Origin: a virus
Taxonomy: Duplodnaviria > Heunggongvirae > Uroviricota > Caudoviricetes
Virus record (IMG/VR): IMGVR_UViG_2859805564_000008
Strand: one strand, 5' to 3'
Length of the DNA stretch: 53,551 bases
The position numbers and the translations under genes were made by a program. Below the pieces are notes generated by a model that was not told the origin of the DNA, did no database searches, and saw only the letters and a list, made by a program, of their open reading frames with translations. This document shows positions 13,977 to 20,629 of the stretch, in pieces (within the stretch, counting starts at the first letter, position 1; every line of letters begins with the position of its first letter).

Positions 13977-15029
13977 ATGAAAAATACTGTAAAAATAAAC
14001 AGTGTTGATTTAATCAACGCTGATTGCCTGCATTTTATTCAGTCCCTGCCTGATGATTCCATTGACCTGATTGTTACCGATCCGCCTTACTTCAAGGTGA
14101 AACCTAACGGTTGGGACAATCAGTGGAAAGGGGACGAAGATTACCTTAAGTGGCTGGACCACTGTCTGGCCCAGTTCTGGCGGGTGTTAAAACCTGCCGG
14201 AAGCCTTTACCTGTTCTGTGGGCATCGCCTGGCATCTGATATTGAGATCATGATGCGTGAACGTTTCAACGTGCTTAACCATATCATCTGGGCGAAGCCG
14301 TCCGGACGTTGGAATGGGTGTAATAAAGAAAGTCTGCGCGCATATTTTCCTGCCACAGAGCGCGTTCTGTTTGCTGAACATTACCAGGGGCCATATCGCG
14401 GCAAAAGTGACGGCTATGCGGCAAAAGAAAGGGAACTCAAACAGCACATAATGGCACCGCTGATATCGTATTTCAGGGATGCTCGTGCCGAAATGGGTAT
14501 AACGGCAAAACAAATTGCCGAAGCCACAGGTAAGAAAAATATGGTTTCCCACTGGTTTGGTGCCAGTCAGTGGCAGTTGCCGAATGAGGCTGACTATCGG
14601 AAGTTACAGGCACTGTTTTCCCGTATAGCGGCAGAGAAGTTTCAGGAACAACAACTGGAACAACCACACCACCAGCTGGTGGCATCTTATGATTCACTGA
14701 ATCGCAAATATTCTGAATTGCTGGATGAGTTTAAATCTCTCCGGCGCTATTTCTCCGTATCAGTCTCCGTGCCTTATACCGATGTCTGGACGCATAAGCC
14801 CGTTCAGTTCTACCCGGGTAAACATCCGTGCGAGAAACCGGCGGATATGCTCCGGCAAATAATCAATGCCAGTAGTCGACCTGGTGATCTGGTTGCTGAT
14901 TTCTTTATGGGATCCGGTTCCACAATAAAAGCAGCAATGGCGCTGGGGCGTCGGGCGTTAGGTGTTGAACTTGAGTCAGAGCGGTTTAATCAGACGGTGA
15001 AAGAGGTAAGTGAACTGGTGGGGAAATAA
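13977..15029 (+). CDS. orphan DNA methyltransferase (beta-class, N6-adenine or N4-cytosine)
   Basis: DPPY catalytic motif (LIVTDPPYF) N-terminal and FxGxG SAM-binding motif (FFMGSGST) C-terminal; no adjacent nuclease gene. Confidence 0.8.
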   Translation: MKNTVKINSVDLINADCLHFIQSLPDDSIDLIVTDPPYFKVKPNGWDNQWKGDEDYLKWLDHCLAQFWRVLKPAGSLYLFCGHRLASDIEIMMRERFNVLNHIIWAKPSGRWNGCNKESLRAYFPATERVLFAEHYQGPYRGKSDGYAAKERELKQHIMAPLISYFRDARAEMGITAKQIAEATGKKNMVSHWFGASQWQLPNEADYRKLQALFSRIAAEKFQEQQLEQPHHQLVASYDSLNRKYSELLDEFKSLRRYFSVSVSVPYTDVWTHKPVQFYPGKHPCEKPADMLRQIINASSRPGDLVADFFMGSGSTIKAAMALGRRALGVELESERFNQTVKEVSELVGK

Positions 15030-15105
15030 TTCTGGTGGCCACGTTGCGTGGCCTTTTTATTTCCAACACAGCACCCGCAAATATCGCGAGGTGAGAGATG
15101 ACGAA

Positions 15106-15432
15106 ATGCCTCATAACCCAAATACCTGGCTGGACTTGGTCCAGAGCTGGTGGCGTGGAGACACACCGCTGGGTGCAGTGATTATGTCGATCGTTATGGC
15201 TGGTTTGCGCATCGCCTATTTTGGCGGTGGTGGTGGCTGGAAGCGAAAAACGCTCGAGATTTTGCTATGTGGCGCTCTGACGCTGACCTTTGCATCCGCT
15301 CTTGAGTATGTCGGATGGCCTAAATCACTTTCTGTTGCCATTGGTGGTGGGGTGGGGCTGATCGGTGTCGATGCTATTCGTGGGGCTGCAATGCGAGTAA
15401 TCGGTAACAAATTTGGTGGCTCTAAGGAGTAA
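15106..15432 (+). CDS. holin (putative)
   Basis: ~108-aa protein with 2-3 predicted TM segments and charged C-terminus, immediately upstream of the endolysin. Confidence 0.6.
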   Translation: MPHNPNTWLDLVQSWWRGDTPLGAVIMSIVMAGLRIAYFGGGGGWKRKTLEILLCGALTLTFASALEYVGWPKSLSVAIGGGVGLIGVDAIRGAAMRVIGNKFGGSKE

Positions 15433-15435
15433 TTT

Positions 15436-15912
15436 ATGCAGGTACTAAATTCCCAGCGTAAAGCTTTCCTTGATATGGTGGCTTGGTCAGAAGGAACGGA
15501 TAACGGACGACAACCGACACGTAACCACGGTTATGACGTTATTGTCGGTGGTGAACTCTTCACTGATTACTCCGATCACCCTCGCAAACTTGTCACGCTA
15601 AACCCCAAACTCAAATCAACAGCCGCCGGACGTTACCAGCTTCTTTCACGTTGGTGGGATGCTTACCGTAAACAGCTTGGTTTGAAAGACTTCTCCCCCA
15701 AAAGCCAGGACGCTGTGGCATTGCAGCAGATTAAAGAACGTGGCGCTTTACCGATGATTGATCGTGGTGATATTCGTCAGGCTATCGACCGTTGCAGCAA
15801 TATCTGGGCTTCGTTGCCGGGCGCTGGTTACGGTCAGTTCGAGCATAAGGCTGACAGCCTGATTGCAAAATTCAAAGAAGCAGGCGGAACGGTCAGAGAG
15901 ATTGAGGTATGA
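15436..15912 (+). CDS. R: endolysin, lambda R-type lytic transglycosylase
   Basis: 158 aa, near-identical in pattern to lambda R ([21 protein letters not shown]...). Confidence 0.9.
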
Positions 15913-16370
15913 GCAGAGTAACCGCGATTATTTCCGCTCTGGTTATCTGCATCATCGTTTGCTTGTCATGGGCTGTTAATCATTACCGCGATAACGCCAT
16001 TACCTACAAAGCCCAGCGCGACAAAAATGCCAAAGAACTGAAGCTGGCGAACTCGACAATTACTGACATGCAGATGCGTCAGCGTGATGTTGCTGCGCTC
16101 GATGCAAAATACACGAAGGAGTTAGCTGATGCGAAAGCTGAAAATGATGCTCTGCGTGATGATGTTGCCGCTGGTCGTCGTCGGTTGCACATCAAAGCAG
16201 TCTGTCAGTCAGTGCGTGAAGCCACCACCGCCTCCGGCGTGGATAATGCAGCCTCCCCCCGACTGGCAGACACCGCTGAACGGGATTATTTCACCCTCAG
16301 AGAGAGGCTGATCACTATGCAAAAACAACTGGAAGGAACCCAGAAGTATATTAATGAGCAGTGCAGATAG
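15909..16370 (+). CDS. Rz: i-spanin Rz
   Basis: 153 aa with N-terminal TM and coiled coil; lambda Rz-like. Confidence 0.85.
16129..16311 (+). CDS. Rz1: o-spanin Rz1 (lipoprotein, embedded in Rz in the +1 frame)
   Basis: 60 aa with lipobox LVVVGC and proline-rich region, nested inside Rz. Confidence 0.75.
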
Positions 16371-16401
16371 CGCTGCCCATATCGATGGGCAACTCATGCA
16401 A

Positions 16402-16695
16402 TTATTGTGAGCAATACACCCGTGCTTCCAGCGGAGTATAAATGCCTAAAGTAATAAAACCGAGCAATCCATTTACGAATGTTTGCTGGGTTTCTGTTTT
16501 AACCACATTTTCTGCGCCGCCACAAATTTTGGCTGCATCAACAGTTTTCTCCTGTCCAATTCCCGAAACGAAGAAATGATGGGTGATGGTTTCCTTTGGT
16601 GTTACTGCTGTCGGTTTGTTTCCAACAGTAAACGTCTGTTGAGCACATCCTGTAATAAGCATTGCCAGAGCGGCAGAAAATAACATTTTTTTCAT
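16402..16695 (-). CDS. bor: Bor lipoprotein (serum-resistance-associated)
   Basis: MKKMLFSAALAMLITGCAQQ lipobox; lambda Bor-like; track ORF extends to 16743. Confidence 0.85.
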   Translation of the reverse strand: MKKMLFSAALAMLITGCAQQTFTVGNKPTAVTPKETITHHFFVSGIGQEKTVDAAKICGGAENVVKTETQQTFVNGLLGFITLGIYTPLEARVYCSQ

Positions 16696-17010
16696 CTTAT
16701 TATCCTGCATTGTTAAAAACGGCAGAATCCTATGTGACAACAATTAAACGATAGTTAAATGGATTGATGAAAATTAAAACTATATAGGTGTACGGTCAGA
16801 CTATTGGAGGTAGTCAGGATTTGAATGTCAGTCTGTTGTCGGCATTCTGGCAATGCAATTTGGATAAAGCGGGGATTAAAAAGATAGAGGCGAGCCGGTC
16901 AGGTAGAAATGAATCAGGCTCAAAGTGAAGCGGAAAAGGTCTGTGGCACAAACTGATGCTGCCATAATTACAGCCTGATGACTTGTGGAATGAAACATGT
17001 TGAACCTCCT

Positions 17011-17562
17011 TAATTGATGTGATTCGAGTGAGGAAGGCATTCTGTCCTTCTATAGTGTCCAGTAAATCAAACAGGAAGCTTGTCTCACGTGTGAGACAAG
17101 CCTCTCCATTAGCGAGTTGTATTGATTACAACTCTTCAAAGAGTTCATTACTGGGTAGATGAAAATAGTTTCACGACGAATGGAGGAGACTATGTCGGTG
17201 GCTTCTTCATTGGAGTACATATGCTCCCTCGAACCTCAAAAGCATGCCGAGTTCGCGGCTGCCGCCATACCACGACTGACCCGTGTTGAAGCTCCGTAAT
17301 TGATGTTATTCGAGTGAGGAAGGCATTCTGCCCCCCTATACTGTCCAGTAAATCAAACAGGAAACTTGCCTTACGCGTGAGACAAGCCTCTCCCATCAGT
17401 GAGTTGTATTGATCTCGACTCTTCAAAGAATTCATTACTGGGTAGATGAAAATAGTTTCACGATGAATGGAGGAGGCTATGTTGGTGGCTTCTTCATTGG
17501 AGTACATATGCCCCCACGAACCCCAAAAACCTGCCGTGTTCGCGGCTACCGCAATACCACCA
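17011..17562. repeat. tandem duplication of a ~286-bp unit
   Basis: Two ~90% identical direct copies (start ~17011 and ~17297), each with a GTCTCACGTGTGAGAC-type palindrome and a GGAGGAG-ATG small-ORF start. Confidence 0.8.
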
Positions 17563-17837
17563 CAGATCCGTCAGGCTATTGCAAAAGCCACAAAAGCGAA
17601 GGCTGGAAGCAATACAAGCCGGGCCAGTCCTGTCATCAGCGCGGTTATGGTTCGCGGGGTTGTCCCTCATGCTCGCCAGTCCTGTGCGGGGGTGGAAGAA
17701 ACAGGACACTCACACAGATTCTTGTGGGTCGATGCTATTCCTTTCTGGATTATCCCGATGCCATTCATGCAAGGCGCTGTATCAGACGTTCGTCATGGCT
17801 GTCAGGCTGACGGGTCCTCCCGGTGGGGTGGTCTGCC

Positions 17838-17900
17838 ACGGGGCGGGAGCGTCGCGGAAAAAGGCTAGTTTTTGAAATTTCATTCGTCATCACCACCACT
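17838..17900. promoter_or_regulatory. candidate cos site (cosN/cosB-like)
   Basis: ACGGGGCGGGAGCGTCGCGG resembles the lambda cos end (GGGCGGCGACCT) as I recall it; followed by TTCGTCAT and the dyad CCACTGTAATAGATTGATATTACAGTGG, upstream of the small terminase gene. Confidence 0.4.
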
Positions 17901-18026
17901 GTAATAGATTGATATTACAGTGGTTTTATTTTTATGGTGTCGATTTTGGTTGTTTTTTGTTCATCACTAACACCGTTTGCCTAAAGTTGTTCGCGAGATG
18001 CATGTTTAAAACATTCTGGAGCGGGT

Positions 18027-18521
18027 ATGGATCGAGAGTTAAAAAATCTGACGCTGAATATCAGTCAACTGGCGGCACTGTCAGGTGTACATCGCCAGAC
18101 TGCTGCGGCAAGGCTGCAAAATCTACCCGTTGCAGGGGGGCATGAAAGCAACCTCAAGCTTTATCGGGTGGTTGATATTGTGTCGGCATTTCTGGCATTG
18201 CCACCGCCGGTTGCAGAAGGCGAAATGGACGCGCATGAGCGCAAAGCCTGGTATCAGTCTGAACGTGAGCGTCTTAAGTTCGAACAGGAAACGGCACAAC
18301 TCATTCCGGCCAGTGATGTCAGACGGGAGTTTGCCATCTGGGCAAAAGCGGTCGTGCAGGTGCTGGAGACATTACCGGATATTCTGGAACGTGACTGCGG
18401 TCTGCAGCCTGCCGCTGTGAGCCGTGTTCAGTCCATTATTGATGATCTGCGCGATCAGATAGCCCTGCGGGTGACTGAAGCAGGTGCGGATGATGAGGAG
18501 GAATTACAGCAGGAGGAGTAA
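18027..18521 (+). CDS. terminase small subunit (Nu1-like, putative)
   Basis: 164 aa with N-terminal HTH-like region and acidic C-terminus; stop overlaps the large-subunit start. Confidence 0.6.
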   Translation: MDRELKNLTLNISQLAALSGVHRQTAAARLQNLPVAGGHESNLKLYRVVDIVSAFLALPPPVAEGEMDAHERKAWYQSERERLKFEQETAQLIPASDVRREFAIWAKAVVQVLETLPDILERDCGLQPAAVSRVQSIIDDLRDQIALRVTEAGADDEEELQQEE

Positions 18522-20629
18522 TGCTGAATCAGGAAACCGCAAAGGCAGCACGAACCGATTCAGGTTATATCCTTCGCGCACCGAGACGAATGCGGGTTGC
18601 TGATGCCGTTGCTCAGTATATGCGGGTGCCCATGGGGGCAGGGAACTCAGTCCCGTGGGATCCGCTGGTGGCACCGTATGTTATTGAGCCGATGAACTGC
18701 CTGGCCTCGCGTGAATACGACGCAGTGATATTTGTTGGCCCGGCACGAACCGGCAAGACTATCGGCCTGATTGACGGCTGGGTGATTTACAACGTGATTT
18801 GCGATCCTGCTGATATGCTGATTATTCAGATGACGGAGGAAAAAGCCCGCGAACACTCCAAAAAACGACTCGCCAGAACGTTTCGCGTCAGCCCGGAAGT
18901 GGTCAGTCGCCTGAGTCCGAACAAAAATGACAACAACGTTTATGACAGAACATTCCTTGCTGGTAACTACCTGAAAATCGGCTGGCCGTCAGTCAATATC
19001 ATGTCCTCATCAGATTATAAATGCGTCGCGCTGACGGATTATGACCGTTTTCCGGAAGATATTGATGGCGAGGGGGATGCTTTCTCTCTTGCCTCAAAAC
19101 GTACCACAACATTTATGTCCAGTGGTATGACGCTGGTGGAGAGTTCCCCCGGCAGAGATGTGAAGGATGTGAAATGGCGACGGACTTCACCGCATGAGGC
19201 TCCACCAACCACGGGGATACTGTCGCTCTATAACCGTGGCGATCGCCGTCGCTGGTACTGGCCCTGTCCACACTGTGGTGAGTATTTTCAGCCCTGCGGC
19301 GATGTGGTTGCTGGTTTCCGTGATATTGCCGATCCCGTGCTGGCAAGTGAGGCGGCTTATATTCAGTGTCCTTCCTGTTCAGGACGGATTATGCCTGAAC
19401 AAAAACGTGAGCTGAACGGACGTGGGGTCTGGTTGCGGGATGGTGAATCCATCAATGCGGATGGCAGTCGTTATGGTGATCCCCGACGCTCACGTATTGC
19501 GTCATTCTGGATGGAGGGTCCGGCAGCTGCTTACCAGACACTCTCGCAACTCGTTTACAAACTGCTTACTGCAGAACAGGAATACGAGACAACCGGAAGT
19601 GAAGAAACACTCAAGACGGTTATCAATACCGACTGGGGATTACCTTATCTTCCCCGCGCCAGCATGGAGCAACGAAAAAGTGAACTGCTTGAGCAGCGGG
19701 CAGAGCCAGTTCCTTCCCGCAGTGTGCCGGATGGCGTTAATTTTCTTGTGGCGACAGTGGATGTGCAGGCGGGACGTCATCGCCGTTTTGTGGTTCAGGT
19801 AACGGGCTATGGCAGCCGTGGCGAACGCTGGATTATTGATCGTTACAACATCACGCAGTCATTGCGCGGTGACAGCGACGGGGAGAGCCAGCGAATTGAT
19901 CCGGCCAGCTATCCGGAAGACTGGGATGTCCTGCTGACGGATGTTTTTCATAAAAGCTGGCCGCTGGCCTCCGATCCTTCTCAACAAATGCGACTGATGG
20001 CAATGGCGGTGGACTCCGGCGGTGAAGACGGGGTCACTGATAATGCCTATAAATTCTGGCGTCGTTGCCGTCGTGATGGCCTTGGTAAACGTATTTACCT
20101 GTTTAAGGGCGACAGCATCCGGCGCGCAAAACTGATCACCCGTACATTCCCTGATAACACCGGACGAACGGGCCGACGGGCGCAGGCCGCAGGTGATGTG
20201 CCGCTCTGGCTTCTTCAGACGGATGCACTGAAAGACCGGGTGAATAACGCGTTATGGCGTGACTCGCCAGGTCCCGGCTATGTGCATTTCCCTGACTGGC
20301 TGGGGAGCTGGTTTTACGACGAACTGACGTATGAAGAGCGGAGCAGTGACGGGAAATGGAGTAAGCCGGGTCGCGGTGCCAACGAAGCTTTTGACCTGAT
20401 GGTGTATGCCGAGGCTCTGGTCATTCTGCATGGATACGAAAAGATCCGCTGGCCGGATGCACCGGAGTGGGCGAGCCGGGAAACCTGGCTGGAGTGTGTC
20501 CCGGACAGTATCGAACCGTCACCCTCACCCTCACCGGAACCGGTATCCACGCCTGTTAAAAAACAAAAACGGAAGAAAACAGTAACTGACGATGTTAACC
20601 CCTGGCTGACTTCCGGAGGATGGTTATGA
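18521..20629 (+). CDS. terminase large subunit (GpA family)
   Basis: 702 aa with Walker A-like GPARTGKT and the size/organisation of lambda gpA. Confidence 0.9.
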   Translation: MLNQETAKAARTDSGYILRAPRRMRVADAVAQYMRVPMGAGNSVPWDPLVAPYVIEPMNCLASREYDAVIFVGPARTGKTIGLIDGWVIYNVICDPADMLIIQMTEEKAREHSKKRLARTFRVSPEVVSRLSPNKNDNNVYDRTFLAGNYLKIGWPSVNIMSSSDYKCVALTDYDRFPEDIDGEGDAFSLASKRTTTFMSSGMTLVESSPGRDVKDVKWRRTSPHEAPPTTGILSLYNRGDRRRWYWPCPHCGEYFQPCGDVVAGFRDIADPVLASEAAYIQCPSCSGRIMPEQKRELNGRGVWLRDGESINADGSRYGDPRRSRIASFWMEGPAAAYQTLSQLVYKLLTAEQEYETTGSEETLKTVINTDWGLPYLPRASMEQRKSELLEQRAEPVPSRSVPDGVNFLVATVDVQAGRHRRFVVQVTGYGSRGERWIIDRYNITQSLRGDSDGESQRIDPASYPEDWDVLLTDVFHKSWPLASDPSQQMRLMAMAVDSGGEDGVTDNAYKFWRRCRRDGLGKRIYLFKGDSIRRAKLITRTFPDNTGRTGRRAQAAGDVPLWLLQTDALKDRVNNALWRDSPGPGYVHFPDWLGSWFYDELTYEERSSDGKWSKPGRGANEAFDLMVYAEALVILHGYEKIRWPDAPEWASRETWLECVPDSIEPSPSPSPEPVSTPVKKQKRKKTVTDDVNPWLTSGGWL

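Follow-up and report, generated by a model that had tools for sequence, protein, structure and literature searches.

The tandem repeat described here reflects ordinary mosaicism among prophages rather than two new small genes. We interpret the region, which lies in a 53,551-nt stretch of viral DNA (hereafter, the window), as a double recombination scar in a mosaic lambdoid E. coli prophage, in which neither the stub of an HNH endonuclease gene nor the out-of-frame open reading frames (ORFs) are functional genes, and we place the probability of this reading at roughly 80%.

The repeat itself is unambiguous. Tandem Repeats Finder returned a single array at 16998–17571 (period 287, 2.0 copies, 88% matches, score 922), while a repeat search resolved collinear blocks at 16988–17107/17274–17393 (88%) and 17106–17284/17393–17571 (89%) with a 1-nt indel offset between them; by blastn, copy 1 and copy 2 are 88.9% identical across 288 nt. 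The copies (16998–17284 and 17285–17571, both taken on the plus strand) lie head to tail across one novel joint, and single-copy relatives exist. The first-pass annotation had described a tandem duplication of ~286 bp and ~90% identity, and this is real, with a period of 287 and an identity of 88–89% that are far beyond chance; the coordinates given there, 17011–17562, fall inside the true unit limits. An assembly artefact was considered and ruled out, as the structure recurs in 19 or more independent complete genomes of E. coli as well as in 6 IMG/VR contigs.

Alignment with single-copy relatives (alignment A1) reveals what was duplicated. Each unit consists of ~223 nt of non-coding leader followed by the start of a terminase-associated HNH endonuclease gene; in copy 1, this corresponds to the leader at 16998–17220 and then the ribosome site, start codon, and initial 21 codons of HNH, with copy 2 having the same content except that its HNH frame runs on past the unit. 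The HNH Shine-Dalgarno (SD) sequence and start codon (TTGGAGTACATATG), with the ATG at 17221 and again at 17508, are invariant across alleles. Stub 1 (17221–17289, plus strand) thus keeps its SD/ATG and spans 22 codons (MLPRTSKACRVRGCRHTTTDPC and then a stop codon) before being ended by the duplication joint, a configuration found in all two-copy loci. Stub 2 (17508–17654, plus strand) contains HNH codons 1–49, i.e., the N-terminal zinc-ribbon part only. Homology to this zinc ribbon (CxxxxC ... CxxH) is evident from alignment A1 and from PHROG phrog_144 (HNH), which matches residues 1–49 of the copy-2 ORF only (E = 4e-8), and the motif class is that of cos-associated HNH enzymes (PMC3592412), of whose zinc ribbon the stubs keep just a portion. 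Since the Pfam HNH domain (PF01844) occupies aa 66–112 of the intact 116-aa homologue, both stubs are without a catalytic domain: they end at codons 21 and 49, the catalytic beta-beta-alpha metal motif with its CxxC zinc site is missing from them, and no Pfam HNH domain was detected in window ORFs 17508–17810 or 17159–17299. In an identical genome, PGAP (RefSeq) calls stub 2 an HNH pseudogene missing its C-terminus.

Sequence variation within the HNH frame is in keeping with this call. Over the 20 overlapping codons of the unit, pN/pS in the HNH frame is 0.40, with intact HNH genes at 0.17. Two substitutions are restricted to stub alleles, namely R42C and C14Y, the latter abolishing one Cys in the CxxxxC motif of the zinc ribbon, and copy 2 has both; the C-terminal read-through tail after the module-swap joint ranges from 36 to 131 aa by locus. 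In two IMG/VR contigs, L057 and L075, the same HNH gene was independently truncated near codon 12 and codon 47, respectively, suggesting that recombination joints recur in the 5' part of this gene. The location of such HNH genes upstream of cos, TerS, and TerL, along with their role in cos cleavage, has been described (PMC3592412, PMC9410871), with HK97 gp74 stimulating cos cleavage by TerL and lambda encoding no HNH endonuclease (PMC9410871). Because HK97 gp74 aids its own TerL but lambda has no such protein, an HNH stub beside a GpA-type terminase is expected to be a functionless relic, in agreement with the restriction of C14Y/R42C to stub alleles, the variable read-through, and the independent truncations.

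The first of the two joints, at 17284–17285, connects HNH codon 21 (...GACCCGT) to the leader start (GTTGAAGCTCC...) with 1 nt of microhomology (T), such that the sequence reads GACCCGT/GTTGAA. This breakpoint is identical in all 8 of the two-copy loci examined: the junction sequence in loci L012, L038, L041, L047, L050, and L080 is the same as that of the window, and the diverged L111 has the same breakpoint. The joint precedes an intact HNH gene (L012, L041, L080, L111) as well as the stub; in XH993, L041, L080, and L111, the second copy runs into an intact HNH gene and an HK97-type module. The same breakpoint before intact and truncated HNH genes therefore points to a single duplication event that was later moved by recombination. 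The exact 40-nt duplication joint is present in 19 of 5426 complete E. coli genomes.

The first-pass annotation had counted absence or high variability of the repeat in related prophages against its own reading, and most relatives are indeed single-copy. In BLAST searches of phage and E. coli collections, the region is 287 bp shorter in most related E. coli/Shigella prophages, which accordingly carry one copy, and these single-copy relatives encode the intact 116-aa HNH protein followed by a P27-family TerS and then TerL. Classification of the units yielded 71 that are single-copy with intact HNH, 19 single-copy with a stub, 5 two-copy with a stub (counting the window and L001, its near-identical twin), and 4 two-copy with intact HNH. 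When viral contigs were scanned with the invariant 22-mer at the HNH start, 98 stretches were recovered, 6 of them two-copy, and the leader occurs in about 650 of the 5426 complete E. coli genomes. Over this region, the window shows 99.7% identity to a prophage of E. coli WP5-W18-ESBL-11.

Only some E. coli/Shigella prophages have the leader. Its motif gave 0 matches in a one-genome-per-species scan, and an HNH-protein scan of the same collection recovered 44 loci, none of which has the leader upstream, including a Shigella flexneri HNH gene product that is 93% identical; the HNH homologues of Shigella flexneri, Edwardsiella, Citrobacter, and others are instead preceded by unrelated sequence. 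The leader is therefore a mosaic block separate from the HNH gene. It also occurs without bor (SfIV, XH993, LH85-a). Leader diversity (pi 0.04–0.06) is low compared to that of HNH third codon positions (0.25), which could reflect a further function of the leader or its recent spread by recombination. In L007 (E. coli MS 69-1; 1879–2204), the leader has acquired a 325-bp insertion between the hairpin and the HNH start, bearing an annotated 64-aa hypothetical ORF on the plus strand.

The second joint, at 17640–17654, is where the HNH gene gives way to a different packaging module. Here, the HNH sequence ...CAGCGCGGTTATGGTTCG meets mEp460-type sequence ...CCGCGTTTATGGTTCG-CGGG across a 15-nt microhomology (CGCGGTTATGGTTCG; 10 nt exact, one mismatch), as delimited from alignment A2 and the blast boundaries. 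The exact HNH/mEp460 joint was found in 33 complete E. coli genomes, mostly single-copy. To its right, the window matches mEp460, vB_EcoS-569R4, and E. coli E1648, all of which have a DUF1441 TerS without the HNH stub: an mEp460-type region (17655–18026, plus strand; ~373 bp) leads into the gene for the DUF1441 terminase small subunit (18027–18521, plus strand; Pfam, and PHROG terminase small subunit) and that for a lambda-type, GpA-family large subunit (18521–20629, plus strand; Pfam GpA_ATPase and GpA_nuclease). Lambda is the type phage of the GpA terminase family. The stub is thereby positioned immediately upstream of the terminase genes, 373 bp from TerS; intact HNH genes lie ~125 bp upstream of their P27 TerS. 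The lambda cosN sequence (GGGCGGCGACCT, allowing up to 2 mismatches) is absent from the window, so the cos site that had been taken as the right-hand border of the repeat was assumed rather than located, and the landmark there is the terminase small subunit gene at 18027. In L009 (E. coli LH85-a), the same 49-codon stub and joint lie upstream of a nohD (lambda Nu1-like) small terminase gene and not DUF1441, with the first 203 bp right of the joint 98.5% identical to the window; the stub and the start of the adjoining segment therefore travel together across lambda-type packaging modules.

The mEp460-type region has features of its own. Across ~17580–17810, all three plus-strand frames are open. 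An mEp460_059 homologue (phrog_17397; 17621–17869, plus strand), the family of which is called a "putative late gene regulator" in phage Ayreon, was considered as a gene of the window and rejected, its start having been lost to the HNH joint and its frame interrupted by a 1-nt frameshift; the corresponding ORF in FDAARGOS_1300 bears a further 1-nt deletion. Downstream, at 17895–17924 on the plus strand, a 12-bp stem (ACCACTGTAATA...TATTACAGTGGT) with TTTATTTTTA after it makes up a strong terminator-like hairpin. As it sits inside the late operon, ~100 bp upstream of the DUF1441 TerS start, Q-modified polymerase would have to read through it.

On the left, the repeat is preceded by genes for lysozyme (15436–15912) and Rz (15909–16370), and by bor/iss (16402–16695, minus strand; Pfam Lambda_Bor, iss in RefSeq), confirming the earlier placement of bor at this side. 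A terminator-like hairpin with a T-run (16329–16343, minus strand), just downstream of the bor/iss stop codon and inside Rz, is probably the bor/iss terminator. Immediately right of bor/iss, a remnant of a P2/SfIV-type lysC (Rz1-like o-spanin) gene, namely of its 3' end (16812–16928, plus strand), marks another mosaic joint at ~16809–16837; it shows no codon periodicity and contains in-frame stops in L009, L010, and L045.

Apart from the HNH start, the unit contains a palindrome, and this hairpin is the only element of the unit for which sequence comparisons suggest a function. In copy 1 (17075–17104, minus strand), it forms a 13-bp stem with a 4-nt loop, followed by CCUGUUUGAUUU (17074 to 17063); the dyad has 14-nt arms that are 93% complementary. 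Predicted folding energies are -23 kcal/mol for the minus strand (z = -3.5) and -18.4 kcal/mol for the plus strand (z = -2.9). The counterpart in copy 2 (17361–17390, minus strand) is weakened, in line with the original description of the dyad as intact in copy 1 and degraded in copy 2, yet its minus strand still pairs via G-U: the fold reaches -13.8 kcal/mol on this strand compared to -6.5 kcal/mol on the plus strand, with z = -0.77 for the minus strand in a 67-nt context; a plus-strand value of -7.7 kcal/mol with z = +0.8 was also obtained. No other part of the leader varies as much as the palindrome (pi 0.125 versus 0.04–0.06 in the flanks), yet the palindrome stays paired, with stem alleles including TCTCAC/GTGAGA, TCCAAC/GTTGGA, and CCTCAC/GTGAGG. 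Considering 15 pairs on the minus strand, 97.1% of cells are paired compared to 39–55% in slid controls, and 3 pairs change on both sides, in 20 cells versus 8.3 in shuffles, a control that overstates the significance of the covariation as the sequences are related.

The hairpin is also strand biased. For the same 13 pairs in 21 distinct sequences, 96.7% of cells are paired on the minus strand versus 86.4% on the plus strand, a difference attributable to two stem positions that are A-C on the plus strand (in 17/21 and 11/21 distinct sequences) but G-U on the minus strand; one of these wobble positions displays the series G-C / G-U / A-U. The minus strand has the more stable fold in 13 of 17 variants, and the plus strand in the other 4. 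A U-rich tail follows the stem on the minus strand alone, and the hairpin was picked up by terminator scans of the window and of the relative L002; a stem-loop followed by a U-rich tract is thus present on this strand, in weaker form in copy 2 of the window. Given the covariation, the strand bias with wobbles that fit the minus strand, and the minus-only U-rich tail, we read the hairpin as a leftward intrinsic terminator; it is probably a Rho-independent terminator of transcription antisense to the late operon.

Searches for further regulatory elements around the hairpin came back empty. Scans of the window region and an intact-HNH relative, plus manual inspection, revealed no sigma-70-like leftward promoter upstream of the hairpin, and the same scans revealed no plus-strand sigma-70-like promoter in the leader. 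By cmscan of 14000–20000 on both strands (E <= 1), there was no Rfam match save for a chance miRNA match inside bor, and RNAalifold, applied to both strands of the entire leader, predicted nothing convincing apart from the hairpin. Publications on prophage sRNAs (EHEC anti-sRNAs, Pas sRNAs) describe no element at the position of the leader, and the Pas sRNA paper makes no mention of HNH, terminase, bor, or lysis genes. ORFs spanning the hairpin on either strand of the leader were rejected as genes, since 1-nt indels (A1 columns 152 and 213) shift their frames and they have no Pfam or PHROG match.

Just outside the unit, a 40-codon minus-strand ORF (MFHSTSHQAVIMAASVCATDLFRFTLSLIHFYLTGSPLSF; 16876–16998) has a perfect SD sequence (TAAGGAGGT at 17005–17011) 6 nt from its ATG. 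The ATG falls exactly at the left edge of the repeat and has become ACG in copy 2 by way of the duplication joint. Situated 65 nt downstream (in the minus sense) of the antisense hairpin, this ORF is open and 40 codons long in 27 of 27 distinct alleles. Its C-terminal half changes at synonymous sites (third codon positions account for 7 of 8 variable sites; pN 0.004, pS 0.084) and its N-terminal half is without a coding signature; a protein search returned only 15 near-identical, unnamed E. coli entries. It may encode a small protein expressed in the lysogen or be a chance pattern. By extension, the ~400-bp block between the lysis genes and HNH might be conceived of as an antisense (leftward) expression unit comprising an intrinsic terminator and the 40-codon ORF, with the duplication doubling the terminator; we regard this as improbable, but if true, a small protein or regulatory RNA expressed in the lysogen might be encoded there.

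What, then, might the duplicated unit do? The most eye-catching proposal was that each copy encodes a small late-expressed protein from a strong ribosome site and start codon, and all of the elements that motivated it are present: GGAGGAG at 17182–17188/17469–17475, ATGs at 17192/17479, and the predicted N-termini MSVASSLEYIC.../MLVASSLEYIC.... In both window copies, the SD-like sequence lies 5 nt before the ATG, and the GGAGGAG-ATG stretch is kept in most alleles. However, neither start codon nor ribosome site is conserved throughout homologous loci, with ATT in place of ATG and GAAGGCNG in place of GGAGGAG in 15 units including SfIV-type phages (14–15, according to how much flank was demanded). 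Out of frame with the true HNH start, which it overlaps, the ORF varies in length from 35 to 200 codons by context and displays no sign of purifying selection: over the 20 HNH-overlapping codons, pN/pS is 1.02 in the GGAGGAG-ATG frame and 1.14 in the third frame. Nor do these ORFs have any Pfam or PHROG match. The small-protein proposal thus fails these coding tests, and we consider it extremely improbable. The first-pass annotation had alternatively suggested a structured RNA at the end of the late transcript, and the half of this suggestion concerning structure holds, as the hairpin is real and covarying. For it to act in the plus-strand late mRNA, e.g., as an RNase III/processing site or stabiliser that the repeat would double, one could invoke the plus-strand fold of copy 1, the inner-stem compensatory changes that suit either strand equally, and the established biology of lambdoid phages, in which it is the late operon that transcribes the plus strand here after induction. 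The late-transcript strand nonetheless fits the structure less well, owing to the A-C positions, the greater minus-strand stability in most variants, and the tail found only there, while copy 2 of the window has barely any plus-strand fold (-7.7 kcal/mol) and Rfam offers no counterpart; a plus-strand role is therefore unlikely in our estimation.

The divergence of the copies raises a related matter, namely whether the repeat has been held in place by selection. In the initial view, an old duplication had diverged under partial constraint, and the identical joint common to diverged phage lineages, including L111, the copies of which are 85.8% identical, does indicate that the event is not recent. 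The remainder of that view did not stand. Each copy has single-copy counterparts at 98.96% identity, copy 1 in EC9682 and E10 and copy 2 in E. coli LH85-a; when all units were placed in a distance tree, the copies did not sort into an upstream and a downstream clade, and every allele cluster has single-copy members. With such ~99% counterparts and no copy-specific clades, the 11% divergence is due to allele shuffling and not decay in place. Divergence within a locus moreover varies from 5.6% to 14.2% (identities of 85.8% in L111 to 94.4%), which, together with the single-copy counterparts, argues for recombination with other alleles as opposed to clock-like decay, leaving in-place divergence to 89% very unlikely. 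The single-copy look-alikes of each copy could be parents or, alternatively, deletion derivatives of a two-copy ancestor. One may still ask whether the duplication was itself selected, with tandem antisense terminators, or a doubled antisense RNA/leader element, tightening insulation or regulation. That the two-copy form occurs in both types of module context and in 19 or more complete genomes, that leader diversity is low, and that most two-copy loci retain the hairpin in both copies would accord with this. Yet the two-copy form is a minority at 6 of 98 viral contigs, and at 19 genomes compared to ~650 with the leader; the second hairpin of the window is weakened, no promoter was found, and the duplication breakpoints cut a coding sequence and a start codon and not the boundaries of an element, making selection for the duplication very improbable. 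Persistence in two module contexts is compatible with some benefit, but a benefit is not required.

We thus return to the double recombination scar, for which the following sequence of events is proposed. The ancestral, and still the commonest, order would have been lysis genes, a ~400-bp non-coding leader, an intact HNH gene, cos, P27 TerS, and HK97-type TerL, with the ancestral HNH protein expected to help the terminase to cut cos, as does its HK97 counterpart. In a first event, illegitimate recombination at 1 nt of microhomology would have linked HNH codon 21 to a site 223 nt ahead of the HNH start, generating a 287-bp tandem copy of the leader, hairpin, ribosome site, and 21 codons, with the upstream copy ending as a 22-codon stub; the duplication, likely neutral, would merely have copied the hairpin. 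In what we infer to have been the later event, illegitimate recombination at 15 nt of microhomology would have fused HNH codon 49 to the sequence preceding the genes of a lambda-type terminase; with the incoming DUF1441 TerS/GpA TerL module having its own nuclease domain, the HNH gene would have been reduced to a zinc-ribbon stub. Homologous recombination among co-circulating prophages would then have shuffled the leader alleles, such that the two copies in the window now differ by 11%.

Several implications arise from this reconstruction. The region provides a clean negative, in which an attractive pair of strong-RBS ORFs with a dyad turns out to be the duplicated 5' end of a known gene, created through two datable illegitimate recombinations. 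It also affords a resolved case of a lambdoid packaging-module swap, from an HK97-type module with an HNH partner to a lambda-type module with none, in which the microhomologies are still visible, and it captures the drift of an HNH relic after such a swap, exemplified by C14Y at a zinc-ligand cysteine. For those mapping prophage transcription in lysogens, the conserved antisense hairpin and its neighbouring small ORF offer minor leads.

Comparison with known systems places the region on familiar ground. In the Hendrix/Juhala model, the mosaic joints of lambdoid phages reportedly derive from illegitimate recombination at sites of short or no homology, followed by homologous shuffling; the window conforms to this in having two novel joints (with 1-nt and 15-nt microhomology), a change from HK97-type to lambda/mEp460-type packaging, and shuffled alleles, and differs in that one of its joints made a tandem duplication, not a replacement, that was later found in both module types. 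Relative to intrinsic terminators, including those flanking morons, the leader hairpin shares a 13–14-bp stem, a 4-nt loop, a U-rich minus-strand tail, and compensatory/wobble changes, but its tail is only moderately U-rich (CUGUUUGAUUU), its activity is putative, and no leftward promoter was found for it. With respect to lambda bor and E. coli iss, the resemblance is restricted to the left neighbour of the repeat, a Bor-family lipoprotein gene on the minus strand that lies outside the repeat. Finally, the coding part of the unit is homologous to the N-terminus of terminase-associated HNH proteins of the HK97 gp74 type (PF01844, PHROG 144), the gene for which is carried by single-copy relatives in its canonical place directly upstream of cos, TerS, and TerL; in contrast, the copies in the window are 21- and 49-codon stubs beside a lambda-type GpA terminase.
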